Below, in pieces: positions 14,958 to 45,987 of a stretch of 64,000 nucleotides of DNA. Numbering within the stretch: the stretch's first letter is position 1; each line of letters starts with the position of its first letter. Position numbers and translations under genes: made by a program. Source of the DNA: Candidatus Levyibacteriota bacterium (lineage in GTDB: Bacteria; Patescibacteriota; Microgenomatia; Levybacterales; GWA1-39-11); the NCBI GenBank assembly GCA_036788695.1, contig DAIQMY010000002.1, positions 66,394 to 130,393 on the forward strand, written 5' to 3'. The notes beneath the pieces are model-generated. The model saw nothing but the letters and a program-made list of their open reading frames with translations, did not search any database and was not told the origin of the DNA.

Positions 14958-15509
14958 ATGAAAAGAATTATAAGACGATTAAAAACTATTATATTGGAAG
15001 CGGATAACATGATATTAAAATGGGTAGGGTATGTTCCTTCGCACCATTTTAGAAGATTGTGTTACCGGTTAGAGGGCATAAAGATTGGAAAAGGATCAAC
15101 CATTCATATGGGGGCTGTATTCTATAATACAAAAAATATAAAAATTGGTTCAGATACAATTATTGGGGAAAACGCTATATTAGATGGACGAAATACTCTT
15201 ACAATAGGAAATCATGTAGATATCGCAAGCGAGGTGATGATTTATAATGCTCAACATGATTTATCTGACGCGTATTTTAAAGCAATAAGTGCCCCTGTTG
15301 CTATTGAAGACTATGTCTTTATTGGCCCGCGCGCGATAATTCTTCCTGGTGTACGTTTAGGTAAAGGGTCAGTCGTAGGAGCGGGAGCAGTGGTAACAAA
15401 AGATGTTCCTGAATTCATGATTGTGGGTGGAGTTCCTGCAAAAGTGATAGGAGAGCGAAAATTAAAAAACCCTTCATATAAGCTTGGTCGTGCTGCTTGG
15501 TTTCGATAA
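14958..15509 (+). CDS. Hexapeptide-repeat (LbH) sugar O/N-acetyltransferase
   Basis: [13 protein letters not shown]...IGENAILDG...IGNHVDIA...[25 protein letters not shown] are left-handed beta-helix repeats. Confidence 0.7.
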
Positions 15510-15515
15510 ATCTAC

Positions 15516-16376
15516 ATGAATGTTTCAATAATTATTTTAACGTTTAATTCATCAAAATATATTGATGAACTTCTTCAGAGTTTAATACAAAAATACAAAA
15601 GAGAGATAAAGGGCAGGCAGCTGGAGATAATAGTAGCTGACAACTCATCTACAGACGATACGGTAAAGAAAGCTTTCAACTACAAGGAAGTAAAAGTTTT
15701 AAAAACAGGTGGAAATTTTGGTTATGCAAAAGGTAATAACATAGCGTCAAAGCAAGCTATAGGTGACATACTAGTATTCTTAAATCCTGATACAAAATTT
15801 GTGTCAGGTGACATATTGCAATTGACAAACGAATTTAAGGATGAAAAAGTTGGCGTAGTTGGTGGAGAAATAGTAAATTACCATGGGGGGAGGGAGCTTT
15901 CATGCGGAAAATTCTACAATTCATTTCATACACTCCTTCTTTCAATGGGACTTGAAGAGTTTAGTGGGGTACGCTTTGCGCCCAATAGAAGGCGGGCGGT
16001 ACAGTTTGTGAGTGGGGCTTTTCTTGCTGTGAAGAAAGATTTATTTCGCAAGCTGAATGGATTTGATGAAAACTATTTTATGTACATTGAAGATAGCGAT
16101 TTTTGTTTTAGGGTGAAGCGTGCGGGGTATTTAATAATTTATTCGCCAAGTGCTACGATAAAACATGTTGGACAAGGAAGTTCAAATAGGACATTTGCTG
16201 TCATACATATTTATAAAGGGTTAGTGTATTTTAACAAAAAACATATGAGTAAATTTTCTTATAATTTTGTTAAAATTTTACTTAAAACAAAGGCTGTTGT
16301 ACTTGTAAACTATGGAAAAGTAAGCAATAATCAATATTTAGTCACAACTTATGAAGAAGCTCTTAAAGCGATTTAG
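15516..16376 (+). CDS. Glycosyltransferase family 2
   Basis: VSIIILTFNSSKYI...IIVADNSSTDDT, YAKGNNIA and YFMYIEDSDFCFRVKRAGY motifs. Confidence 0.75.
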   Translation: MNVSIIILTFNSSKYIDELLQSLIQKYKREIKGRQLEIIVADNSSTDDTVKKAFNYKEVKVLKTGGNFGYAKGNNIASKQAIGDILVFLNPDTKFVSGDILQLTNEFKDEKVGVVGGEIVNYHGGRELSCGKFYNSFHTLLLSMGLEEFSGVRFAPNRRRAVQFVSGAFLAVKKDLFRKLNGFDENYFMYIEDSDFCFRVKRAGYLIIYSPSATIKHVGQGSSNRTFAVIHIYKGLVYFNKKHMSKFSYNFVKILLKTKAVVLVNYGKVSNNQYLVTTYEEALKAI

Positions 16377-19300
16377 CAATAAAAATAATTTTTTAGAAGG
16401 TAAGTTACTGTTTTTTTTAGTTGCAGTTCTTATAGTATTTATTCCTTTGTATCCGAAGCTTCCTGCAATCGGAGTAAATAATACATGGGTGTATATACGG
16501 CTTGAAGATTTTTTAATCGCATTTACAACTTTTGTCTTTTTGATACAGTTGTTGAGGAGACGGGTTCATGTAAGTCGCCCCCTTGGGATACCAATAGTTG
16601 CATACTGGATTGCGGGATTTCTATCTCTTTTAATTAGCATAGTATTTCTTGCTCCTCATCTTGCAAATTTTTTCCCTCATGTCGCGATTTTATCTTATTT
16701 GAGGCGCATCGAGTACATGGTGCTTTTCTTTGTAGGGTATGCTGTTATAAAAGAAGAAAAGGATATCAGGCGGTTGTTTTGGGTTTTGGCTGTGACCACG
16801 GGAGTAGCTTTTATATATGGAATTGGTCAAAGATATTATATAAATGTATGGGCAGCTTTTCCTGATTTCTTTGAGAAATACTCATTTTGTTTTCCTTCGT
16901 TTCAAACAACAAATGAAGAGTTCGCAAAAGGTATTCCTCTGTGTTTGCCTTCAGATGGGAGAATAACTTCTTTATTTGGAGGTCATTACGACCTCTCTGC
17001 ATATCTTGTATTGGTAATACCAATTATTTTCTCAGTTGCTTTTGCAATGAGAAAGAGACTGTATCAAATTTTATTACTCCTGTTGGGTACTGGGCTTGTA
17101 TACCTGCTCATTTTAACGGCATCCAGGATTTCGTTTGGTGCGTATATAGTAGGCATTATCTTTGCACTCGTGTTTATTAGAAAAAAAATGATTATTATCC
17201 CTATACTTATTATTTCTTTATTTTTTCTTGTAACATCAAGCTCAAGTGTATTGCAACGTTTTACACAAACCTTCAGATTCACAAATCTAGTAATAAACAG
17301 CCAGGGTCAGGTGGTCGGTGAGGCTGTTAATAAATTGCCTGAGCAGCTAAAGAAAAAAATCTCACATGAGCCAATTATCGTAGAGGCGCCACCCCCAACA
17401 CAGGAGTTGCCTACGGGTTCAAGCTATATAGCACTTCCTGGAAAGACTGAGTCAACATCATCAGCTGTGTTAAAATCGTCACCAAAATTATCAAAAGAGG
17501 AAAAAAGCAAATATAAATTTGGTGCAGTTGAGATCTCAAACGTTCAGGGTAACTTCTTGATCCAGAGAGCACTTGTATATGATATTTCTTTTACAACCAG
17601 ATTTCAGGGAGAATGGCCAAATACATGGAGAGCATTTATGAGGAATCCTATATTTGGAAGTGGATATGCAACTATTACTTTGTCCTCAGATAATAGTTTC
17701 CTAAGAGCCCTGGGAGAGGTTGGGGTATTAGGATTTATCACGTTTTTTTCATTTTTTATTCTTTGGTACATCTATGTTAAAAATAACTATAAAGAGGCAG
17801 ACAGGTTTACAAGAAATTTCGTTCTTGGTCTTTCGGCTGGAGTAATTGGGCTTTTTCTAAACGCTGTGCTTATTGATGTTTTTGAGGCATCAAAAGTTGC
17901 AGAGTCTATGTGGCTTCTTTTAGGTATAGGAGCGGGTGGAATCGCCTTATATGCGAAAAACAAATTTTCATATCTTCATGAGTTAAGAAATATACTTTCC
18001 TCAAGTCTATTTTTAATGATTTACTTATTAATTTTGTTTTTTGTGTTCTTAGGCTCATCATTTAATAATTTTTTTGTTGGAGACGATTTTACATGGCTAA
18101 GATGGGCAGCTCAATCAGACAATACAACATTAGTTAAAAACTTTTACGATGCACAGGGATTTTTCTTGAGACCTATAGATAAGCTGCTCATCTTTGTGCA
18201 ATATACACTTTTTAATTTAAAACCTTTGCCTCATCATTTATTCACTCTTTTTTATAATTTTGGTGTTAGTATTGTGGTATATTTTCTGCTTTTTAGAATA
18301 TTTAAAAAGAAAAGTACTGCGTTTTTGGGAGCATTTATTTTTTCCTTTATCCCTTCACATTCGCAAAATTTGTTTTGGATTGCAACTATTTCAACGACCG
18401 TTTCTACTTTTTTTGTTTTGTTAGGACTTTTCTTTTATTCAATAGCTCGTAAGTCTCAGAAAATACTTTACTATATTTGCGCATTTATATTATTCTTGTT
18501 AGCAATTTTTTCATATGAAAATGCCATCATCTTTATTGGTCTCATGGTTGTTTTTGATATGTTTATTGCAAATCACAGTGGAAAACGTCAGAAGATGCAG
18601 ATATTTTTACCATATCTTTTTGCAGTAGTAATAGTAGGTTTTTACTTACTAGTTCGAATAAACGCGCATGCTGCAGGTTTTTCGGGAGATTATAATTACA
18701 ATTTATTAAAGCTAATTCCAAACACTATTGGTAATTATTTGGGGTACATTGCTTTGTTTTTTGGAAGCGAATCTACTTTATCTTCTTATACTTATCTAAG
18801 AAATATTATGAAGCAATATGTATTAGTACTTAGCTTTATAGGATTTATGTTTATCGCGTTTGTTGCGGGTTTTGTTATTGAGCACAAAGAGAGGTTTTCT
18901 GTTTCAAATCGTAAGAAAATATTTATTTTTGGTTTTATTTTTTCTATTGTTGCCTTACTGCCATATTTGCCTTTAGGTAATATTACCTTGAGATACCTTT
19001 ACCTTCCATCATTTGGCTTTGTTGTGATGGTTATTACTATTTTTGATTTTTTGTTTTCAAAAATCACAGTAAAGAAATGGTTTGCTCTAGTTTACAGCTT
19101 AGTAATTATCATGCTTGGACTCATGTTTTATGTTGGCCTAACGCGGGCAGAGCGTTATTGGGATGAAGCCTCAAAGATCACCTATGACACGTTAGTAAGA
19201 TTTAGATTAGATTATGATCTTAAAAATAATACGAATCTTTATTTCTACAATGTTCCGATTAGAAATGGTGAGGCGTATATATTTCCAGTAGGACTTGCTG

Positions 19301-19473
19301 ATGCAATTTATTTTGTTAACACGGATAAATCTGTAAAGGTATATCAGGTAAAAGACAGGAAGACAGCAGAAAATTTGAAGAATTCTGTTCCTGCAAAAGT
19401 TCTTCACACAGGTATATTTACTTTTGACAAAAATAAGATGTTAGATTTTGTAGAGTATTCAAGTAAAGAATAA
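16351..19473 (+). CDS. Very large (1040 aa) integral membrane protein with O-antigen ligase/Wzy-like N-terminal region, a central exported segment, a second multi-TM block and a C-terminal soluble domain
   Basis: Hydrophobicity plus the Wzy_C-like stretch YLRRIEYMVLFFVGYAV...GIGQRYY. Overlaps the upstream GT2 by 26 nt. Confidence 0.4.
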   Translation: MKKLLKRFSNKNNFLEGKLLFFLVAVLIVFIPLYPKLPAIGVNNTWVYIRLEDFLIAFTTFVFLIQLLRRRVHVSRPLGIPIVAYWIAGFLSLLISIVFLAPHLANFFPHVAILSYLRRIEYMVLFFVGYAVIKEEKDIRRLFWVLAVTTGVAFIYGIGQRYYINVWAAFPDFFEKYSFCFPSFQTTNEEFAKGIPLCLPSDGRITSLFGGHYDLSAYLVLVIPIIFSVAFAMRKRLYQILLLLLGTGLVYLLILTASRISFGAYIVGIIFALVFIRKKMIIIPILIISLFFLVTSSSSVLQRFTQTFRFTNLVINSQGQVVGEAVNKLPEQLKKKISHEPIIVEAPPPTQELPTGSSYIALPGKTESTSSAVLKSSPKLSKEEKSKYKFGAVEISNVQGNFLIQRALVYDISFTTRFQGEWPNTWRAFMRNPIFGSGYATITLSSDNSFLRALGEVGVLGFITFFSFFILWYIYVKNNYKEADRFTRNFVLGLSAGVIGLFLNAVLIDVFEASKVAESMWLLLGIGAGGIALYAKNKFSYLHELRNILSSSLFLMIYLLILFFVFLGSSFNNFFVGDDFTWLRWAAQSDNTTLVKNFYDAQGFFLRPIDKLLIFVQYTLFNLKPLPHHLFTLFYNFGVSIVVYFLLFRIFKKKSTAFLGAFIFSFIPSHSQNLFWIATISTTVSTFFVLLGLFFYSIARKSQKILYYICAFILFLLAIFSYENAIIFIGLMVVFDMFIANHSGKRQKMQIFLPYLFAVVIVGFYLLVRINAHAAGFSGDYNYNLLKLIPNTIGNYLGYIALFFGSESTLSSYTYLRNIMKQYVLVLSFIGFMFIAFVAGFVIEHKERFSVSNRKKIFIFGFIFSIVALLPYLPLGNITLRYLYLPSFGFVVMVITIFDFLFSKITVKKWFALVYSLVIIMLGLMFYVGLTRAERYWDEASKITYDTLVRFRLDYDLKNNTNLYFYNVPIRNGEAYIFPVGLADAIYFVNTDKSVKVYQVKDRKTAENLKNSVPAKVLHTGIFTFDKNKMLDFVEYSSKE

Positions 19474-19474
19474 C

Positions 19475-20929
19475 ATGAAAAAGAAAATAGAAATTGTGAT
19501 TTTTGTATGTATTTTGATCTTTGCATTTGTCCTAAGACTGTACCGTTTTGATAATCCGATAGGAGATTGGCATGCGTTTAGACAGGCCGATACTTCAGCT
19601 GTTGCTAAAGTATATGTTTCAAATGGGATAAATCTTTTGTCGCCAAAATATTTTGATATATCTAATATACAATCTGGAAAAGATAATCCTGAAGGGTACA
19701 GATTTGTTGAGTTTCCCCTCATAAGTGCCATACAGGCAATTACCTTTATGTACATTGGGGTACTGTCTCTTGAGGAGTGGGGAAGACTTATTACTATTTG
19801 TGCGTCTTTGGGGAGTTTAATTTTTATATATCTTATTGTTCGTAGAAATCTTGACCCAGTTTCAGGATTATTCGCAGCATTTTTTTACGCCATTCTTCCA
19901 TATTCAATTTTTTACGGTCGTGTAATACTTCCAGATCCTGCCTGCGCATGTGCAATTCTTGGCGGAATTTATTTCTTTGACCTAGCAATATCATACAAGA
20001 AGCACAAACTGCTTTTGTTAAATATATTTTTTTGGCTTGCCCTTATTTTTACTGCTGCATCATTTTTACTAAAGCCGTTTGCTTTATTTTTTATTCTGCC
20101 AATGCTTCTTCTTGCATGGAAGAGGTATGGTTTTAGAGTCATTCTTCAGTGGCAGCTGTACGTTTTTGCTTTTCTATCTGTTCTCCCACTTATAGCATGG
20201 AGAATATGGATAACTCAATATCCCGAAGGCATACCCGTATCAAATTGGTTATTTAATGAGGGCGGTATACGATTTACCGGTGCATTTTTTCATTGGATAT
20301 TAGCAGAGCGAGTTGCAAAATTAATGCTTGGGTATTTCGGGATTGTTTTGTTATTTTTAGGCTTGTTTAAGAGGTCTGAAAAAAACTATTTGTTTTTCTT
20401 ATCATTCCTTCTCTCATCTATTATATATGTAATTGTCATCGCACGAGGGAACGTTCAGCATGATTACTATCAAATATTAATACTGCCTACCATATGTATA
20501 TTCTTAGGTAGAGGGGCGACTTTTTTACTTTCCCTTCCGGTAAAGATAGGTGAAAACATTACAGTAAATACCTGCGTTTCTTTCCTTACCCTTTTCTCAA
20601 TAATTATCTTTTCATTTATGCTGTCCTGGTACCATGTTCGAGACTATTTCAATATAAATAATAGGGGGTTAATTAACGCGGGAATTATTGCGGATAAAGT
20701 ACTGCCGAAGAATGCAAGAGTGATAGCCGCAAATGACGGGGATACTTCATTTTTGTATTACATAAATAGAAAGGGATGGCCAGCTTATGAGAAAAGCGTA
20801 GAGGGTTTGCGGGAAATGGGTGCAACTCACATAGTAGTTCCGAATCCTACAGAAAATGATATCAATGGCTTAGGTGCAGAATATAAACGTTTGTATACAT
20901 CTAAAGATGTACTTATTTTAAAACTATGA
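19475..20929 (+). CDS. GT-C fold membrane glycosyltransferase (ArnT/PMT/GT39-83-like)
   Basis: N-terminal RLYRFDNPIGDWHAFRQADTSAVAKVY resembles the first-loop acidic motif of ArnT/PMT enzymes. About 11 TM helices and a C-terminal soluble domain. Confidence 0.45.
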   Translation: MKKKIEIVIFVCILIFAFVLRLYRFDNPIGDWHAFRQADTSAVAKVYVSNGINLLSPKYFDISNIQSGKDNPEGYRFVEFPLISAIQAITFMYIGVLSLEEWGRLITICASLGSLIFIYLIVRRNLDPVSGLFAAFFYAILPYSIFYGRVILPDPACACAILGGIYFFDLAISYKKHKLLLLNIFFWLALIFTAASFLLKPFALFFILPMLLLAWKRYGFRVILQWQLYVFAFLSVLPLIAWRIWITQYPEGIPVSNWLFNEGGIRFTGAFFHWILAERVAKLMLGYFGIVLLFLGLFKRSEKNYLFFLSFLLSSIIYVIVIARGNVQHDYYQILILPTICIFLGRGATFLLSLPVKIGENITVNTCVSFLTLFSIIIFSFMLSWYHVRDYFNINNRGLINAGIIADKVLPKNARVIAANDGDTSFLYYINRKGWPAYEKSVEGLREMGATHIVVPNPTENDINGLGAEYKRLYTSKDVLILKL

Positions 20930-39090: not shown

Positions 39091-40328
39091 TGTTAGCAGT
39101 ATTGCTTGCAGCAGGGGAATCATCCAGATTTTATCCGTATAATGATTTGGGGCACAAAAGCCTTGTTACTCTTTGTGGGAAAAAACTGATTGTTCACACG
39201 CTGGATTCCTTACGAGAATCAAATATTAAAAATGTGATTATAGTTGAGAATAAAAATAGGTCGGTGTCAAAAAGTCTTTCAGTCTCAGATACAAAGGGTC
39301 TCAGTGTAAAATTTATTGTTCAGGATTCGCCAGCAGGGATGGGGGAGGCTGTGCTTCTTTGTAAGCCGTACATAAAAGAAACTTTTTTTCTTTTAAATGC
39401 GTATCATTTTGAATTTTCTGAAGTAGCAAAAGAACTATTAAAGATCAGCAAGAAAGGTTATCTTGCGCTTTTAACCAAAGAAGAAAAAAACGCGAAAGAA
39501 TTTGGATCAGTTGAATTAAAAAATGGAAAGATGGTTATTTCAGAGAAAAAAAATAGTGAAGCAAAAGATAGAATTGTAGGAATATATTGTCTTCCTGTGG
39601 CGTTTCTTGACGTGCTGGAAAAAGAAAAAAAAGATCATTATAGCTTTGAAAGTGCTCTTACCTCTTTCTCACAAACAAACAGGATAGAGCTTGTGCAAAC
39701 AAAAAAGGAGACGCTTTCATTAAAATATCCTTGGGATATTTTAAGCATAAAAGACTATATGCTTGAGCGATTAAAAAAACATAAAGGGAAGGGTGTTACT
39801 ATTTCAAAACGAGCTGTATTACACGGTGAGGTATATATTGACGATGGTGCAACCATTATGGATGGTGCTGTCATAACTGGGCCATGTTATATTGGGAAAA
39901 ATGCATATATAGGAACAAATTCCATACTAAGAGGGGGAAGTCTTATTGAGGAGAAAGTGGTGGTAGGCGCAGGGTTAGAAGTAAAAAACAGTGTTCTTAT
40001 GAAGGGAGTAAAAACACATTCAGGGTTTATTGGAGATTCTTTAGTTGGGGAAAACACTAAAGTTGCCGCGGGGTATAACAGTGCAAATGTAAGATTGGAT
40101 AAGGAAAATGTGAAAGTGAAGGTAAAAGGTGAATATGTAAGTACTGGTCGTAAGTATTTTGGGGCAATTATAGGTTCAGGAGTATCATTTGGAATACGAG
40201 TCGGCACAATGCCGGGAGTAGTAATTGGGAACAATGATTTAATTGGACCTGGAACAACAGTTATGCAGAATTTGGAAGACAATATTACGTATTACACGGA
40301 AATAAAAGGAGTTATTACAAAGCGTTAG
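39090..40328 (+). CDS. GlmU-like bifunctional protein: N-terminal sugar-1-phosphate nucleotidyltransferase, C-terminal left-handed beta-helix
   Basis: MLAVLLAAGESSRF (LAAGxGxR-type). The C-terminal hexapeptide repeats are VITGPCYIGKNAYIGTNSILRGGSLIEEKVVVGAG... Confidence 0.5.
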   Translation: MLAVLLAAGESSRFYPYNDLGHKSLVTLCGKKLIVHTLDSLRESNIKNVIIVENKNRSVSKSLSVSDTKGLSVKFIVQDSPAGMGEAVLLCKPYIKETFFLLNAYHFEFSEVAKELLKISKKGYLALLTKEEKNAKEFGSVELKNGKMVISEKKNSEAKDRIVGIYCLPVAFLDVLEKEKKDHYSFESALTSFSQTNRIELVQTKKETLSLKYPWDILSIKDYMLERLKKHKGKGVTISKRAVLHGEVYIDDGATIMDGAVITGPCYIGKNAYIGTNSILRGGSLIEEKVVVGAGLEVKNSVLMKGVKTHSGFIGDSLVGENTKVAAGYNSANVRLDKENVKVKVKGEYVSTGRKYFGAIIGSGVSFGIRVGTMPGVVIGNNDLIGPGTTVMQNLEDNITYYTEIKGVITKR

Positions 40329-41332
40329 AGATTTGTAATTTTTTTCCACAAAAATGGGGCATTTTGGGGCAAGTACCACTCAGAATTATGTGCCCCGTAT
40401 TTAAAAAACGCAATATCTGTTTTCCCTCCAAAGTCTTGTACTTGACTAATATCATCATCAAAGTGTTTCATTGAGGGAAAAGTCCATAAAGGGGGTTCAG
40501 ACCATGCACCCAGAGCTATAATAAACTGTATATTTTTATCAATTCTTTCTATTTCTGAAATGGAACGGCTCGCAACTGTTGCAACAAAATCAGGATAATA
40601 ATCTTCTACGTTTGTGTAGGCATTTATCATGACAATATCTGCTACGTTTTTTCCAAATGGATTTCCTTGCCTAAAAAAATCGTTTGTGTAGTCATAAAAA
40701 AACCAACCGTTCATACGAATAAGTATAGGATGGTTAGGGTCGGTATTTTTTACATCTCTATATGAGTTTTGGAGTTGCGAAAGCGTAAGGTAGTACTTCC
40801 TGTCTGCATTTGGTAGCACAGATCCCGCTTCATTTGAGGTGTCCCATGCGTATAATGCAGGATGGTTTTTATACAAGTTTACAAAATGTATTACTTTTTC
40901 TTTTTGCCATTGTGGCATTTGATCTTTGGGATATGTTTCAGTGTTGCACTCATATCCCCATTCAGCTTCTCCTGCGCCTGCAGGAAGAATAACTTTTAAA
41001 TTATGTTGATGCGCTCGATCTAAAAATGAACGCACATCTTCTTCTGATTCGCAAATGTCAAAATTTCCTTCAATAACGTCTATTTTTGCATTTTGTAAAA
41101 CAGCAAAGTCGTTATCTGTTAAGCCAAAATCATCCATGTATGCTTCACCTACATCCTTCAAAATTTTTCTTTGAGTGCGTTCTCCTATTTTCTGAATTGG
41201 GGTTATACTGCTTTTTTGTGTATTGCTCCTTGTCATGCCAGTTGAGATTTTTGAAACAAACTGTAATGGTTGGTTGAGGAAGATAATGATGAATGAAGCC
41301 AAAATTGAAAAAAAGAGTATTGGCTTTATCAT
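40325..41332 (-). CDS. Secreted TIM-barrel glycoside hydrolase (clan GH-A-like; family not assignable by eye)
   Basis: N-terminal signal/TM. YAWDTSNEAG is an NE acid/base-type motif. ALGAWSEPP is a possible nucleophile-Glu motif. Last gene of the minus-strand operon. Confidence 0.4.
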   Translation of the reverse strand: MIKPILFFSILASFIIIFLNQPLQFVSKISTGMTRSNTQKSSITPIQKIGERTQRKILKDVGEAYMDDFGLTDNDFAVLQNAKIDVIEGNFDICESEEDVRSFLDRAHQHNLKVILPAGAGEAEWGYECNTETYPKDQMPQWQKEKVIHFVNLYKNHPALYAWDTSNEAGSVLPNADRKYYLTLSQLQNSYRDVKNTDPNHPILIRMNGWFFYDYTNDFFRQGNPFGKNVADIVMINAYTNVEDYYPDFVATVASRSISEIERIDKNIQFIIALGAWSEPPLWTFPSMKHFDDDISQVQDFGGKTDIAFFKYGAHNSEWYLPQNAPFLWKKITNL

Positions 41333-41345
41333 GTTGTGCGGTACA

Positions 41346-43760
41346 CTACTGCTTGTTAAACGTTACGGAATCTATAAGAACATTTCCTGTAGAGGTTGCT
41401 GTAGTATAGAACTGAACCCTTATTTTTTTAACTGATGTGTTTGTTGGGATATAGCTAAATTGTTTAATTCCTGTGAAGGAAGTATTTATCATGCCTTTCC
41501 ACTGTCCGGAAATCCAATTATCCGCTGCATCGTATTCATCTATGTAAAATCCAAATTCTCCTGTTAGATTAGTTGTTTTAACGTATGATGACCAAACATA
41601 CTGGAACGTAGCATCAATAGGAGTTAGAGCAGAAAAGAAATGCGCTCTTAAGTTATTTATGTTTATGGTAATGCTATTTGCACCGTCATTTCCTTCTGAT
41701 CCAGTATTTACTATCCAAGAGGTCGAATCAGATGTCCACGCTGTTGGCAGGTTTCCTGAAACGCTTTCAAAAGATGAGTTACTAAGAATATTTGCGCCAG
41801 GTGTAGGCGTAACAGTAGGTGTTGCGGTTGGTGTTGCAGTTGGAGTAACTGTAGGTGTAACGCTAGGCGTAATTGTTGGAGCCACAGTAGGAGTAGCTGT
41901 AGGTGTAACAGATGGGCTAATGGTTGGTGTTGCAGTTGGAGTAACTGTAGGTGTAGGCTGCGAATTATCAAGTAATGAAACTGAGTCAAGTGTTGTATCC
42001 CCAGTGCTGTTTGGAACGAGGTAATATTGAAGTCTTATTTTGTTTACAAGTGCACCTGTTGGCGTGTACACAAAAGTCTTTAAGCCATCAAAAATCGTAT
42101 TTATCATGCCTTTCCACTGTCCGGATATCCAATTTCCAGCGGTATCGTATTCATCTATGTAAAATCCAAATTCTCCTGTTAGATTAGCAGTTTTAAGATA
42201 TTGTGACCATGAGTATTGTGTTGTTGTAGATGGTATTGCTATCAAGTCGGAAAATAGATGGCTATAATTTGCGCTTCCTGATACTTTTGCGCTATTTGTT
42301 GCGTCATTTCCCTCCGAAAGTGAATTTATTACCCAATTTGCGGTGTCGTGAGTCCAATTAGATGCGAAAGCACCTGTTGTTTGTTCAAAACTATTATTTG
42401 CCACAAGATTTAGGTTTGGCGTAGGAGTGGGAGTTACGCTTGGGGTTATAGTAGGTGTAACAGTTGGGGTAACGCTTGGCGTCGCGGTAGGTGTAACGGT
42501 AGGTACAAGTGTTGGTGTTGCTGATGGTGTAGCCGCAAGATCATGGAGGGATATGTTATCAACGTATGCATTTCCAGTAGCTCCTGCAGTAAAGTATGTT
42601 TGTATTCCAATCTTTGAGACTAGTGAAGAGGTCGTTTCATAAAACTTTGTAAAGAAGCCGATCGTGTTATTCGCAACCAATCCAAGCCACTGTCCGGAAA
42701 TCCAATTATCCGCTGCATCGTATTCATCTATATAGAATCCAAGCTCACCAGTTGTAACACCTGTTGTTGAGTAAAACGCCTCCAGTAAATAGTCTGCTCC
42801 AGGAATAACGCTTATTAAACCTGAGAATAAATGTGTTGCAGTTGCACCACCTGTAAGTTTTGCTGAATTACTAGAATCTTGAGCTGCGCCATTGTTATTT
42901 GTATCAAGTGTTGTTTGAGTGTTACCCGCTGTCCAATTAGTGAGTCCATTTGAAAAGTCTGAATTGGTGACTATATTTACACCGGGTGCTTTAATCCCGT
43001 CTCTAATACTTACAACTGGAATTTGTTTTTCATTAATATAGTCAGCGATTGCCGTTAAATCTGTTGAAGTAGTTGTATATTCATAGTTTGGGTCTAATTG
43101 TGGCGCAACATGATGGAAAACAAGAATAAGCCATTGTTTATTTGTTATTGCGGAATCAATATATGCCTTAACCTGGGCAATAGTTGTTGCAGAATTTATA
43201 TCTTGAACCTGTAAGATTGCTTTATTTGAAGGCACTGAGTTATATGCAATGTCTGCAAATCCTCTATGCGAATCAAATAATTTAAGAGCTTCTGTTAGTA
43301 CGATATTGTCATATGCTCCAAAGGGTGTTGCAAGATTACTCACTGAAAGTCCATGTGCCTCAAGCTCTTCTTTTGAGGTAGTGAACTCAGAAATAATTTG
43401 AGTTTGAGTTAAGAGGGGTAGCTCAGGATGAGTGGCTGTGTGATTGCCCACTTCCCAGCCATATACATTTTGAAGATTTTGCAACTGTGCCCAGGACATA
43501 GAAGGAAGCCCGTCATCTGTTAGACCACTATTTATATATCCTGAAGTAGCATAAATAACACCTTTTATGTTCCTGGATGAGAGTATTGGCAACGCCTCTG
43601 TATAGGTAGATAGAAATCCGTCATCAAAGGTTAAGGACACCTGTGCCCTTTGGTATACCGCAGGGTCAACTGCAGCGTAGGTATTTCCCACAAACAATAA
43701 TTGAGCAACTATTGTTACAAGCACTAGGTATGTAAGTATTTTTTTTGTTATATTAAACAT
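41346..43760 (-). CDS. Secreted polysaccharide deacetylase (CE4/NodB domain) followed by three tandem CBM4/9-like beta-sandwich modules separated by Thr-Pro linkers
   Basis: Signal peptide. CE4 motifs are TFDDG, GNHTATHP and LILVFHH. Three repeats begin NSDFSNG/NNSFEQ/NSSFES and each contains EFGFYIDEYD(A/T)A(D/G)NWISGQW. Linkers are TPTVTPTATPSVTPT... Confidence 0.7.
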   Translation of the reverse strand: MFNITKKILTYLVLVTIVAQLLFVGNTYAAVDPAVYQRAQVSLTFDDGFLSTYTEALPILSSRNIKGVIYATSGYINSGLTDDGLPSMSWAQLQNLQNVYGWEVGNHTATHPELPLLTQTQIISEFTTSKEELEAHGLSVSNLATPFGAYDNIVLTEALKLFDSHRGFADIAYNSVPSNKAILQVQDINSATTIAQVKAYIDSAITNKQWLILVFHHVAPQLDPNYEYTTTSTDLTAIADYINEKQIPVVSIRDGIKAPGVNIVTNSDFSNGLTNWTAGNTQTTLDTNNNGAAQDSSNSAKLTGGATATHLFSGLISVIPGADYLLEAFYSTTGVTTGELGFYIDEYDAADNWISGQWLGLVANNTIGFFTKFYETTSSLVSKIGIQTYFTAGATGNAYVDNISLHDLAATPSATPTLVPTVTPTATPSVTPTVTPTITPSVTPTPTPNLNLVANNSFEQTTGAFASNWTHDTANWVINSLSEGNDATNSAKVSGSANYSHLFSDLIAIPSTTTQYSWSQYLKTANLTGEFGFYIDEYDTAGNWISGQWKGMINTIFDGLKTFVYTPTGALVNKIRLQYYLVPNSTGDTTLDSVSLLDNSQPTPTVTPTATPTISPSVTPTATPTVAPTITPSVTPTVTPTATPTATPTVTPTPGANILSNSSFESVSGNLPTAWTSDSTSWIVNTGSEGNDGANSITININNLRAHFFSALTPIDATFQYVWSSYVKTTNLTGEFGFYIDEYDAADNWISGQWKGMINTSFTGIKQFSYIPTNTSVKKIRVQFYTTATSTGNVLIDSVTFNKQ
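41795..41980. repeat. Thr-Pro linker-encoding tandem repeat 2 inside the CE4-CBM gene
   Basis: Same 6-nt periodicity. Source of the spurious ORFs 41659..42024(+) and 41711..41989(-). Confidence 0.6.
42427..42550. repeat. Thr-Pro linker-encoding tandem repeat 1 (ACN-CCN periodicity) inside the CE4-CBM gene
   Basis: Produces spurious antisense Gly-Val ORFs (42427..42642). Read directly from the sequence. Confidence 0.6.
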
Positions 43761-44367
43761 TGCATTCTCCTTCTGAAATAGATATAAGTTTTGCTTTTAC
43801 GACAAATCGCTGTTCAGAGAAAGCACCAGCACAAGTAATTAAGGTAAGGGTAGGCTTTTCTGTGGGATAAAATGCTTCAACGTTTGCGGGATCACTCACG
43901 CCAACTGATGTCACCTTATAGACCGCTGTATGTTCTGCTGTTTTTACAACTATCTCCTCTCCTGTTGAGAGTTTTTTAATGTTTGTAAAGCCATTTTCCT
44001 TATCGTGCGCGAATATTCCCACATTTCCTTTAATCCGGGATACTGTATTTGTTTCTTTAGCGTAGTTTGCAACTCCTTCATTTACTTTCCATGTACCATT
44101 TTGAAGCGCAACTGTTGTAACCGGTAAGTTTATTCCTGCTTTTTTTATCAAAATCTGTTGAGGTATATAATCGTCTTTGTTTGTGCATGTTGTAAGTTTT
44201 GCATAGGAGACTGCAGCCGGTTGTGGATGTTCTGGCAATAAATTAGCTGCCGCGATAGAAGTTACTCCAGATAATTGGAGAATACTTGCGGTTATAACCA
44301 CGAATAACCCTATCCCTAAGGGAAGTTTTTCCTGTGTTCGTTTTGTATTAAATTTAAGCTTATTCAT
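43753..44367 (-). CDS. Sortase (cysteine transpeptidase)
   Basis: N-terminal TM anchor. His motif GNVGIFAHDKENGF, catalytic Cys in LTLITCAG (TLxTC), downstream Arg (QRFVVKAKL). Confidence 0.75.
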   Translation of the reverse strand: MNKLKFNTKRTQEKLPLGIGLFVVITASILQLSGVTSIAAANLLPEHPQPAAVSYAKLTTCTNKDDYIPQQILIKKAGINLPVTTVALQNGTWKVNEGVANYAKETNTVSRIKGNVGIFAHDKENGFTNIKKLSTGEEIVVKTAEHTAVYKVTSVGVSDPANVEAFYPTEKPTLTLITCAGAFSEQRFVVKAKLISISEGECNV

Positions 44368-44369
44368 GT

Positions 44370-44562
44370 TTACCTTTGTCTGTTTGAATTTATGAGAAAT
44401 CTAGTTATTGATCCCATTAAAACTATCAAGCTTACAAAACTGACCGTAAAAAGTGCCCCAACTAATATTGGGTCTGCATTATTAGCCAATAATATTCCTC
44501 CTGCTGTTGTTGCAGGTAATGATGTTGCTGCTCCTAATACGCTTCCGCGTCCATAATCTGTC
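44370..44562 (-). CDS. 64-aa peptide that is essentially a cell-wall-sorting-signal-like module (LPATT + hydrophobic helix + basic tail). Either a sortase substrate or an IcaD/PgaD-like synthase accessory subunit.
   Basis: Strong RBS (AAAGGAG, 9 nt) before the ATG at 44562. Translation is MTDYGRGSVLGAATSLPATTAGGILLANNADPILVGALFTVSFVSLIVLMGSITRFLINSNRQR. The longer 118-aa version in the track overlaps the GT2 C-terminus and is unlikely. Confidence 0.4.
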
Positions 44563-44583
44563 ATAATATATAGCTCCTTTCTT

Positions 44584-45849
44584 TTATGCTCTTGTACCCC
44601 ACGATAGTGTGTACCCGATTTTTTGAAATGCTCTGTGTCCTGCTTGTTCTGCTGCGATGAGCTTAGGTGAATATTTGATTGCAAATCTAGACAACGTGTT
44701 GAAAATGAAAAACATATAAGAACCAATTAATATTGCAGATAAGATGTTGGAATATATAAATTCAGGAATGATAAGAGCCTTTACTATCCAATCCCATTTG
44801 TCACGTTCTTTGAAAGAAAGCAAGGAAATTAAGTTAAAAGAGTAGGAAAGTATAAAATGTAAGAGCGCAATTACGAAAATACCAAATACTAATGCCGGCG
44901 GTGTTTCGTGATTTCTTACTACCACAAGAGACAGAAGCACAACTAGTAGTAAAGATAAGAATAGTGTGTGCCCAATAATATCTTGAAGTACGTGAGCATA
45001 GTCTTTCCAGAAATCCTTAACCACAATAATCCCGCCATAGCTCCATCTTACTCTCTGCTTCCATAGTTCAGGTAGAGTTTCAGGAACATTTGTCCATGCA
45101 TGAGCACTAGGTGCAATAGCTGTTTTCCATCCAGCCTTTTTAATTCTTACCGTAATGTCATAATCTTCAATTAGTTTATCAACGTTGTATCCCTTTACGT
45201 CTAAAAGCGCGCTATATCTAAATGCTGAAAGCATCCCCTGCATAACAAGTGGTCCTGAAAGAAATCCAGTATCGCTTATTTTTGTGATATTAAATCCGTG
45301 GTACTCAAGGCTTTGTAGTCTTGTTAATAAATTTTTCTTTCTGTTTTTAACCCACGCATTTGATACGACCGCACCTATTTTTGCATCTTGAAAAAGTACG
45401 TCAACTAATATCTGAATGGTATTGTGATTTATTGTAACGTCGTCATCAAATGTCAGGACAACATCTGGTTTACTTTTCTGTTTTGAAATATGGGTGAGTG
45501 CAAAATTTAACGCTTGCGCTTTTAAATGCGTCTTGTCGGTTCTTAGTAAAACTATTTTTTTGTTTTTTTGCGTAAGTGCTTTTATTTTTTCAAGGATGGT
45601 TGTGCTTTGTAGCGCGTTTTTTGGAGTATTGTCATCAACAACAATTATCTGTATGTTCTTGTCCCATGTAGATATATTATTTATAAGCCTATAAGTTATA
45701 TATTTAGGTTTAAATGTGGGGATAATTACCGTTATACGTTTCTTATGTGAAACATGCGTAAGCATTTTTTTTATACCCTTCTTTGGGACAAAAAATGCAA
45801 AAAACTCTCGTGCAAATTTTCTTGATTTTACAATAATTTCTTGAGACAT
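44584..45849 (-). CDS. Processive family-2 glycosyltransferase (IcaA/PgaC/NodC/chitin-synthase-like polysaccharide synthase) with C-terminal TM helices
   Basis: ITVIIPTFKPKY...IIVVDDNTP, a DDD patch (LTFDDDVT), and WKQRVRWSYGG, which is the QxxRW processivity motif. 4-5 C-terminal TM helices. Confidence 0.75.
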   Translation of the reverse strand: MSQEIIVKSRKFAREFFAFFVPKKGIKKMLTHVSHKKRITVIIPTFKPKYITYRLINNISTWDKNIQIIVVDDNTPKNALQSTTILEKIKALTQKNKKIVLLRTDKTHLKAQALNFALTHISKQKSKPDVVLTFDDDVTINHNTIQILVDVLFQDAKIGAVVSNAWVKNRKKNLLTRLQSLEYHGFNITKISDTGFLSGPLVMQGMLSAFRYSALLDVKGYNVDKLIEDYDITVRIKKAGWKTAIAPSAHAWTNVPETLPELWKQRVRWSYGGIIVVKDFWKDYAHVLQDIIGHTLFLSLLLVVLLSLVVVRNHETPPALVFGIFVIALLHFILSYSFNLISLLSFKERDKWDWIVKALIIPEFIYSNILSAILIGSYMFFIFNTLSRFAIKYSPKLIAAEQAGHRAFQKIGYTLSWGTRA

Positions 45850-45987
45850 AAATCTGGATTTTACACTATGAGATTATAAATGTCTAGTACCAATACCAGA
45901 TAATAAAAGTAAGACCTGAACAGACTAAGGTATTTAATAAAAATTTTCGTAAAAGATGCTAAGCTTCAAAGGAAATTAAAAGATAGG

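Follow-up and report, generated by a model that had tools for sequence, protein, structure and literature searches.

What could a gene of 64 codons do when it is wedged between a polysaccharide synthase and a sortase and its product amounts to little more than a sorting-signal-like sequence? This question is raised by a 64,000-nt stretch of DNA from a Candidatus Levyibacteriota bacterium (contig DAIQMY010000002.1, positions 66,394 to 130,393; this whole stretch is the window, counted from its first letter). Its minus strand carries, in this order, genes for a GT2 synthase, the small open reading frame (ORF) in question, a sortase, a CE4 deacetylase and a clan GH-A hydrolase. Comparison of the encoded sequences across genomes makes it fairly probable, in our view, that the 64-residue protein is a dedicated and almost cargo-less substrate of the co-encoded sortase, within a five-gene exopolysaccharide cassette of the candidate phyla radiation (CPR). 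The first-pass annotation had seen in the protein the layout of an LPxTG-type sorting signal that carries hardly any cargo, and this description is supported by the conservation of LPxT and by the intact sortase that adjoins it in every informative locus.

The small protein and its family

The ORF starts with an ATG at 44564-44562 and ends with a stop codon at 44372-44370, on the minus strand; the span first assigned to it, 44370-44562, is correct at its start and falls 2 nt short of the true end at 44564. The consensus ribosome-binding site (RBS) AAAGGAG, described as lying 9 nt before the ATG, is indeed seen at 44580-44574. The product reads MTDYGRGSVLGAATS-LPATT-AGGILLANNADP-ILVGALFTVSFVSLIVLMGSI-TRFLINSNRQR, so that the annotated layout of 15 residues, LPATT and a basic tail holds, while the single hydrophobic stretch of ~25 residues that was placed between motif and tail does not: this part consists of a weakly hydrophobic 7-mer, a polar break (NNADP) and then a transmembrane (TM) helix of ~21 residues. 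Neither a 118-aa extension of the ORF from an upstream TTG nor a 54-aa antisense ORF finds support, as relatives start with M-[TN]-D-Y-G and in several of them the frame is closed upstream of this start. A terminator-like hairpin inside the ORF (44472-44457) is at or below shuffled expectation.

By its conservation the ORF is a real gene. A protein identical to its product is annotated as hypothetical in one Candidatus Levybacteria metagenome-assembled genome, and the ratio of non-synonymous to synonymous changes (pN/pS) in its frame comes to 0.11-0.17 when close relatives are compared and to 0.26-0.29 with those of about 60% identity; values of this size (0.11-0.29 overall) place it under purifying selection. 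Among 1.84 billion representatives, scanned exhaustively with HMMER, there were 39 matches at E up to 0.001, 38 of them aligned as members, and the family alignment holds 38 clusters at 50% identity, with two proteins excluded (one spurious, one a fusion). Searching a word-indexed database with the family profile returned 56 clusters, all unnamed or hypothetical, whose organism names are solely Levybacteria, Microgenomates and Patescibacteria group; genome records of the family loci add Dojkabacteria and 'Saccharibacteria' labels. As far as these sequences go, the family is unannotated and was found in this analysis only in Patescibacteria/CPR. Its members are nearly all 56-66 aa long, the longer ones being mis-called starts or C-terminal extensions. 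Run against Pfam and NCBIfam at E up to 1, the window protein and the 38 alignment members gave scattered noise, with no PgaD, IcaD or LPXTG-anchor model among the matches. In one locus (L006, 2075-2266) the small ORF is intact though the gene caller of the source assembly skipped it, and the family is likely to be under-annotated: all members carry the label hypothetical at present, and some assemblies miss the gene altogether. Another locus, L012 (CAYMYC010000001.1), is titled 'uncultured Gammaproteobacteria'; its match is 94% identical in protein sequence to a Levybacteria protein and sits in the same dcw context, and the taxonomic label is probably wrong.

Only two columns of the 38-member alignment, whose mean column identity is 32%, are invariant, and these are L16 and P17; T19, R55 and N59 are conserved at 90% or above. 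Among 55 unique sequences the first four motif positions are L (55/55), P (55/55), A (46/55) and T (52/55), with the threonine found in 78 of 81 database members. The fifth residue is small in 54 of the 55 (S 24, T 13, A 12, G 5 and Y 1) and is followed mostly by A (38) or G (9). In this alignment LPxT is therefore the most conserved feature of the family, and the LPATT of the window is one state of LPAT[S/T/A/G], the canonical LPATG occurring in five of the 55. The doubt first raised over LPATT as against LPxTG is eased by the non-glycine fifth residues documented for class D sortases (PMC8225981).

Conservation extends to both ends of the protein. The N-terminus follows M-[TN]-D-Y-G-[KR]-G, conserved at about 70-75% per position, and the tail contains an arginine (46/46), then -[YF]-x-x-, an asparagine (45/46) and K or R after it. 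We take the R-[YF]-x-x-N motif as a sign that the membrane/cytoplasmic part has a specific partner, because a generic sorting signal would not need it. Neither Tyr4 nor Thr2 is conserved well enough to be favoured as a primer of the polymer: of 48 members only 36 have Y at position 4, several having F, H or no residue there, and 26 have T at position 2.

Linkage to the sortase and the proposed pathway

The link between the small ORF and the sortase is tight in the window and is preserved wherever it can be followed. GT2 ends 19 nt before the ATG, in a gap that holds the RBS, and the sortase begins 2 nt after the stop codon, in agreement with the original placement of the ORF directly upstream of a sortase and adjoining the synthase; further on, the sortase and deacetylase genes overlap by 8 nt, and 13 nt separate the deacetylase from the 335-aa hydrolase gene. 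We collected 29 loci with a family member (about 22 distinct sequences, in several genomic contexts), of which six came from a genome pattern search with a 10-sequence subset of the family; metagenomes scanned with a degenerate DNA pattern yielded 13 loci, three of them (L018, L021 and L023) chance matches. Wherever the DNA reaches far enough to tell, a sortase lies -1 to 13 nt downstream of the small ORF (25 of 25 loci) and GT2 upstream of it (27 of 27), and deacetylase and hydrolase come next as long as the contig continues. Approached from the other side, sortase relatives whose contigs were inspected have the small ORF in four of four cases (uncalled in one assembly). Small ORFs next to sortases in related genomes, the check proposed at the outset, were thus sought and found, with synteny conserved in all 25 informative loci.

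The cassette (40325-45849) is the sole long minus-strand block in a plus-strand mur/dcw cluster of the window, between a GlmU-like gene and mraY. In Levybacteria generally it sits in the dcw/mur cluster on the strand opposite to its neighbours, and elsewhere its neighbours are unrelated; the five genes thus travel together although their surroundings vary from genome to genome. In L031, a 1.61-Mb genome, the cassette is directly followed (15032-20186) by a GT2-GH26 fusion of 837 aa, a deacetylase paralogue of 776 aa and another GT2. This second set has neither small ORF nor sortase, its 776-aa deacetylase being a close paralogue of the repeat-bearing one; because both are absent from it, the small ORF and the sortase are gained or lost jointly, in company with the cassette-type GT2.

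The sortase itself is well defined, scoring 73.2 bits against PF04203 (cutoff 26.6), with H121, C179 and R187 invariant in 14 orthologues. None of the NCBIfam class models A-F reaches its cutoff, the best being class E with 47.5 bits against 160. By profile, the solved structures most closely related to it are 4d70 (class D) and 2kw8 (class A), the latter of which we take to be SrtA of B. anthracis. The former is SrtD of C. perfringens (PMC4498605).

What else could this sortase act on? No C-terminal sorting signal was found in the GT2, sortase, deacetylase or hydrolase orthologues, and it is because no other cassette protein has one that the substrate reading gains support. A permissive scan of the 64-kb window for [LIV][PA]x[TSA][GSTAN] followed by a hydrophobic stretch and a basic C-terminus found solely the small ORF, and the window has one sortase gene. 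Over about 240 kb of loci the same scan returned, besides members of the family, only two ORFs that are evident noise and a single conventional protein. This protein (L032, 2865-3800, ~7 kb from the cassette) has 311 aa, a signal peptide, LPSTG, a post-motif segment of 43 residues with a proline break, and RRRKK at its end; at least one cassette-bearing contig thus encodes an ordinary substrate with a related LPxTG motif. An LPATT-like signal on another exported protein had been suggested as a check, and an unrelated motif as the sign that would speak against a sorting signal; the LPSTG protein answers the first, and the second does not hold. The post-motif length of 43 residues compares with 40-45 in the small-protein family, and on this single example a long, interrupted hydrophobic region may be the local style of sorting signal.

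For the motif to be cleaved it would have to lie outside the membrane. On the biological hydrophobicity scale (values after Hessa et al. 2005, simply summed), the best 19-mer over LPxT comes to +2.5 to +7.4 kcal/mol, with a mean of +4.0 and none of 48 members at or below 1.5, whereas the C-terminal helix averages -1.3 kcal/mol and does not exceed 0 in 41 of the 48. The N-terminal part has a net charge of ~0 and the tail a mean of +3. AlphaFold places helices at residues 6-26 (predicted local distance difference test score, pLDDT, 56-64) and 32-63 (pLDDT 81-90), with a break at 27-31. Because of the pattern of hydrophobicity and charge we favour, as a prediction and not as proof, a single-pass N-out/C-in protein with LPxT outside, within reach of the sortase ectodomain. 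Such a protein would be of the Pf3 coat type, and its short N-tail would have to be exported independently of a signal peptide. Of the features that mark a sorting signal, three are present: an LPXTG-like pentapeptide (LPATT, with L and P invariant in the family), a hydrophobic segment (mean delta-G of the C-terminal 19-mer -1.3 kcal/mol) ahead of a tail of charge +3, and a cognate sortase next door in the 25 informative loci.

The pathway that we propose would run as follows. The small protein would insert without a signal peptide, single-pass and N-out/C-in like the Pf3 coat, leaving residues 1-31 exposed. The sortase would cleave after T19 and form a thioacyl intermediate with the 19-residue peptide MTDYGRGSVLGAATSLPAT, and AATSLPATTAGG is the peptide that its ectodomain (about residues 60-204) could be expected to target. 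The 19-mer would then be passed to an amine acceptor, for which a peptidoglycan precursor is the default candidate. The glucosamine (GlcN) amine that the deacetylase could make in the polymer would be an attractive alternative, because the deacetylase is translationally coupled. The TM helix and its R-[YF]-x-x-N tail would be left behind in the membrane, probably touching the synthase; the gene stands where those of IcaD/PgaD stand. The net effect would be polysaccharide output that is coupled to the cell wall, or marked, via sortase chemistry. A bolder version makes the cassette a system for sortase-dependent attachment of the exopolysaccharide, either with GlcN amines, unmasked by the coupled deacetylase in the nascent polymer, as the nucleophile, giving a peptide-polysaccharide amide, or with the 19-mer as an adaptor that the sortase would transfer to peptidoglycan along with polymer bound or attached to it; we put it forward as a tentative idea that is rather unlikely to be right in full.

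Several observations weigh against the substrate reading. The small protein has no N-terminal Sec signal peptide (net charge ~0, no strong h-region), none of the 38 members matches a curated LPXTG-anchor model of Pfam or NCBIfam at E up to 1, and glycine at the fifth motif position is found in only 5 of 55 members. Both the spacer between LPxT and the TM helix (~12 residues) and the post-motif segment (40-45) are longer than in classical sorting signals. The Kyte-Doolittle mean of the LPxT-containing 19-mer, 1.49, is moderately hydrophobic and borderline, and together with the low-confidence AlphaFold helix over LPxT it would also suit a helical hairpin. The census of substrates and of second sortases covers 64 kb of the source genome. 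Finally, a natural fusion described below suggests that in at least one lineage binding without catalysis can be sufficient.

Other roles for the small protein

The fusion bears on the first alternative, in which LPxT occupies the sortase groove without being cut. The small protein would then be a regulatory pseudo-substrate, or a ligand that is not cleaved, and would be the subunit that tethers a sortase-fold protein to the synthase, cleavage being rare, absent or regulatory (a brake released by processing, or a signal of C-peptide type). In the fusion (P0049; L030, 379-1260) small protein, tail, sortase TM segment and sortase domain follow one another in a single chain; the sortase domain has lost its catalytic His, Cys and Arg (H to D, C to A, R to K), while the motif, LPASG, is kept and the gene is still found between GT2 and deacetylase. 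In this one lineage the small protein and the sortase thus remain paired in the absence of catalysis. The arrangement would fit a cytoplasmic C-terminus of the small protein and a physical association of small protein and sortase. A single-chain AlphaFold model gives pLDDT below 50 for residues 1-39, the motif region, and no docking information. The same alternative draws on a tail motif and a conserved N-terminus that are more specific than a generic sorting signal needs, on the tight coupling of four genes, suggestive of a stoichiometric complex, and on S. gordonii, where membrane-retained remnants of sorting signals are sensed (PMC11326707). Against these points, the fusion is known from a single 2.3-kb contig of one sample, and its sequence would suit either a pseudo-sortase or a decaying locus; moreover the triad is invariant in the other 14 cassette sortases, a sign that catalysis is normally under selection. 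We regard a ligand that is never or seldom cleaved as unlikely, and return to cleavage by the sortase as the preferred reading.

Could the protein serve the synthase only? Its gene follows directly after a PgaC/IcaA-like GT2 and precedes a deacetylase, as icaD does, and it might form a two-helix hairpin with both termini in the cytoplasm that solely activates or stabilises GT2, with LPxT as an intramembrane packing or kink motif and the sortase acting on a product encoded elsewhere. The predicted helices at 6-26 and 32-63 with their break at 27-31, the borderline Kyte-Doolittle value of the motif region and the wide conservation of P32 in the break would all suit such a fold. The unfavourable insertion energy of the motif segment in 48 of 48 members and an N-terminus without net positive charge speak against it, and no cassette offers the sortase an alternative substrate. 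It would also be a striking coincidence if the sole invariant residues of a protein that is always encoded beside a sortase spelled LPxT with a small residue after it. The IcaD/PgaD-like role suggested in the first-pass annotation accordingly fails as homology, as no family member matches a PgaD or IcaD model of Pfam or NCBIfam at E up to 1, and survives as an analogy of position. As the whole function of the protein we find it improbable.

Far less probable still is a cleavable Sec-type signal peptide at residues 1-21, whose c-region would be L-P-A-T-S-A, with proline at -5 and small residues at both -3 and -1, and from which signal peptidase I would leave a type I membrane peptide of ~43 residues. 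The pattern P-A-T-[STAG]-[AG] and the mild hydrophobicity of residues 8-16 agree with this, but the n-region carries a net charge of ~0 and is followed by a short, weak h-region. Conservation within a family does not normally peak in the signal peptide, signal peptidase I does not require an invariant L-P with T at 95%, and the obligatory linkage to a sortase would be left unexplained. The last alternative, a spurious frame of 64 codons open by chance in the spacer between GT2 and sortase, which could appeal to its shortness, to the want of a Pfam or NCBIfam match and to its being uncalled in assembly L006, has practically nothing left to it and is already refuted by the conservation data, that is by the pN/pS values, by the 38 clusters of conserved length and motif with 56 word-indexed database matches, and by the consensus RBS and the same, uncalled, ORF in L006.

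The cassette among known systems

No description of the small-protein family or of the cassette was found in the full-text literature searched, which omits much subscription literature. The pair as we read it would work most like the one-sortase, one-substrate operons of class D. There a specialised sortase serves one cognate substrate, as with C. perfringens SrtD, the closest solved relative of the cassette sortase by profile, which is co-operonic with a single LPQTGS substrate (PMC4498605), and the fifth motif residue can be Ala or Ser: B. anthracis SrtC has BasH/BasI with LPNTA, and B. subtilis YhcS has YhcR with LPDTS and YfkN with LPDTA (PMC8225981). The differences are that the cassette sortase reaches no NCBIfam class cutoff, that the pair sits in a polysaccharide synthase operon, and that class D substrates are full-size secreted proteins with signal peptide and cargo, whereas the small protein offers 15 residues of cargo and has no signal peptide.

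As a whole the cassette looks like a synthase-dependent exopolysaccharide system to which a sortase and a mini-protein have been added. It shares with icaADBC and pgaABCD the processive GT2, a small membrane protein encoded directly after it and a CE4 deacetylase in the operon. In contrast to those systems, which have no sortase, the small protein has no sequence relation to IcaD/PgaD and one TM helix predicted on the hydrophobicity scale instead of two (AlphaFold draws two helices, the first at low confidence), the GT2 scores 128 bits, far below the equivalog cutoff of 422, and the clan GH-A hydrolase takes the place of IcaC or PgaA.

A genomic link between a protein-sorting transpeptidase and exopolysaccharide biosynthesis is known from PEP-CTERM/exosortase systems, in which the C-terminal signal is tied to exopolysaccharide genes (Haft et al. 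2006, PMC1569441). The exosortase is polytopic and unrelated to C60 sortases, its motif is PEP and not LPxT, and it serves many substrates per genome, while each cassette has one mini-substrate. The GT2 of the window weakly matches the exosortase-associated glycosyltransferase models TIGR03111 and NF053846. A possible analogy in logic to the pairing of sortase and CE4 deacetylase is offered by the Type IX system, where the sortase-like PorU joins cargo C-termini to a sugar amine of A-type lipopolysaccharide that the deacetylase VimE is proposed to expose (PMC7468200). It too combines a cysteine transpeptidase with a deacetylase; unlike the cassette, to which it has no homology, it uses a gingipain-family fold and signals of ~80 residues at a Gram-negative outer membrane. 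On amino-sugar nucleophiles of a sortase nothing citable was found in the literature searched. That a sortase substrate can carry a glycan is shown by GspA of Actinomyces oris, a cell wall-anchored substrate glycosylated by LcpA before anchoring (PMC6381275); GspA is a secreted protein of normal size and its partner an LCP enzyme, whereas the cassette has no LCP gene, and glycosylation of the 15-residue N-terminus would be pure conjecture. In S. gordonii, finally, the membrane remnant of a sorting signal is itself sensed (PMC11326707).

What would such a substrate be good for? Substrates reduced to 15 residues and a signal imply that the useful product is a short peptide, a membrane remnant or the transpeptidation event as such. 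Sortases are known for displaying full-size proteins or for building pili. Here their chemistry would be tied to exopolysaccharide production, as has so far been seen only with the unrelated exosortases, and attachment of the polymer, if true, would make this C60 sortase the first to act in the display of a polysaccharide and not of a protein, on a substrate pared down by evolution to the bare signal. The envelope and attachment biology of CPR/Patescibacteria, most of which cannot be grown in culture, is largely unknown, and a compact cassette of five genes, suited to expression in another host, offers a tractable way in. The sortase may also serve as an LPAT[S/T/A]-specific ligation tool.

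The features of the cassette are collected in Table 1.

Table 1. Features of the five-gene cassette, in window coordinates
Feature	Coordinates	Strand	Basis or remarks
64-aa small membrane protein gene (span includes stop codon)	44370..44564	minus	member of unannotated CPR family; candidate dedicated sortase substrate
Shine-Dalgarno sequence AAAGGAG	44574..44580	minus	9 nt upstream of the small-ORF ATG; read directly in the sequence
N-terminal 15 residues MTDYGRGSVLGAATS ('cargo')	44520..44564	minus	family consensus M-[TN]-D-Y-G-[KR]-G
LPATT pentapeptide (TTA CCT GCA ACA ACA)	44505..44519	minus	family alignment
Predicted transmembrane helix, residues 33-53, ILVGALFTVSFVSLIVLMGSI	44406..44468	minus	hydrophobicity scale and AlphaFold helix
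Predicted cytoplasmic tail TRFLINSNRQR	44373..44405	minus	family motif R-[YF]-x-x-N then K/R; family conservation, charge
Sortase, 204 aa, N-terminal TM anchor	43753..44367	minus	PF04203; H121, C179 (TLITC), R187
Processive GT2 synthase, 421 aa, PgaC/IcaA- and NodC-like	44584..45849	minus	DDD, ED, QRxRW
Secreted CE4 polysaccharide deacetylase, 804 aa	41346..43760	minus	signal peptide, TFDDG, HxxxH, three repeats
Membrane-anchored clan GH-A-like glycoside hydrolase, 335 aa	40325..41332	minus	N-terminal anchor, invariant N167-E168
Promoter-like site TAGACA-17-TAAAAT	45858..45886	minus	just upstream of GT2 start; consensus match only

With DDD, ED and QRxRW conserved, the GT2 is a processive synthase whose product may be like poly-N-acetylglucosamine or like chitin: its best NCBIfam match is PgaC_IcaA (TIGR03937), the model behind the score given above, and it also matches NodC. 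Against PDB sequences it has no match at 1e-5. At its extreme C-terminus a motif GYSxxWGT[RK] (44587-44613) is conserved across 16 orthologues, and this motif could be the partner of the R-[YF]-x-x-N tail of the small protein. The promoter-like site upstream of the GT2 start is weak, as such sites are fewer in the region than in shuffled controls. The GC content of the cassette is not anomalous and gives no sign of foreign origin.

The three repeats of the deacetylase, of ~170 aa each, contain GE[FL]GFYIDEYD..NWISGQW and are separated by T/P-rich linkers; they may be carbohydrate-binding modules without a Pfam model. A Pfam 'ACD' match of this protein at 29 bits looks artefactual, and its PDB matches to circumsporozoite protein are artefacts of the low-complexity T/P linkers. 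Its mature N-terminus was considered as a conserved nucleophile and rejected, as orthologues differ in what follows the predicted signal peptide. The 335-aa protein shows weak profile matches to GH5 and GH158 enzymes around N167-E168, and its positional counterparts in two other genomes match GH26 or GH10, all of clan GH-A.

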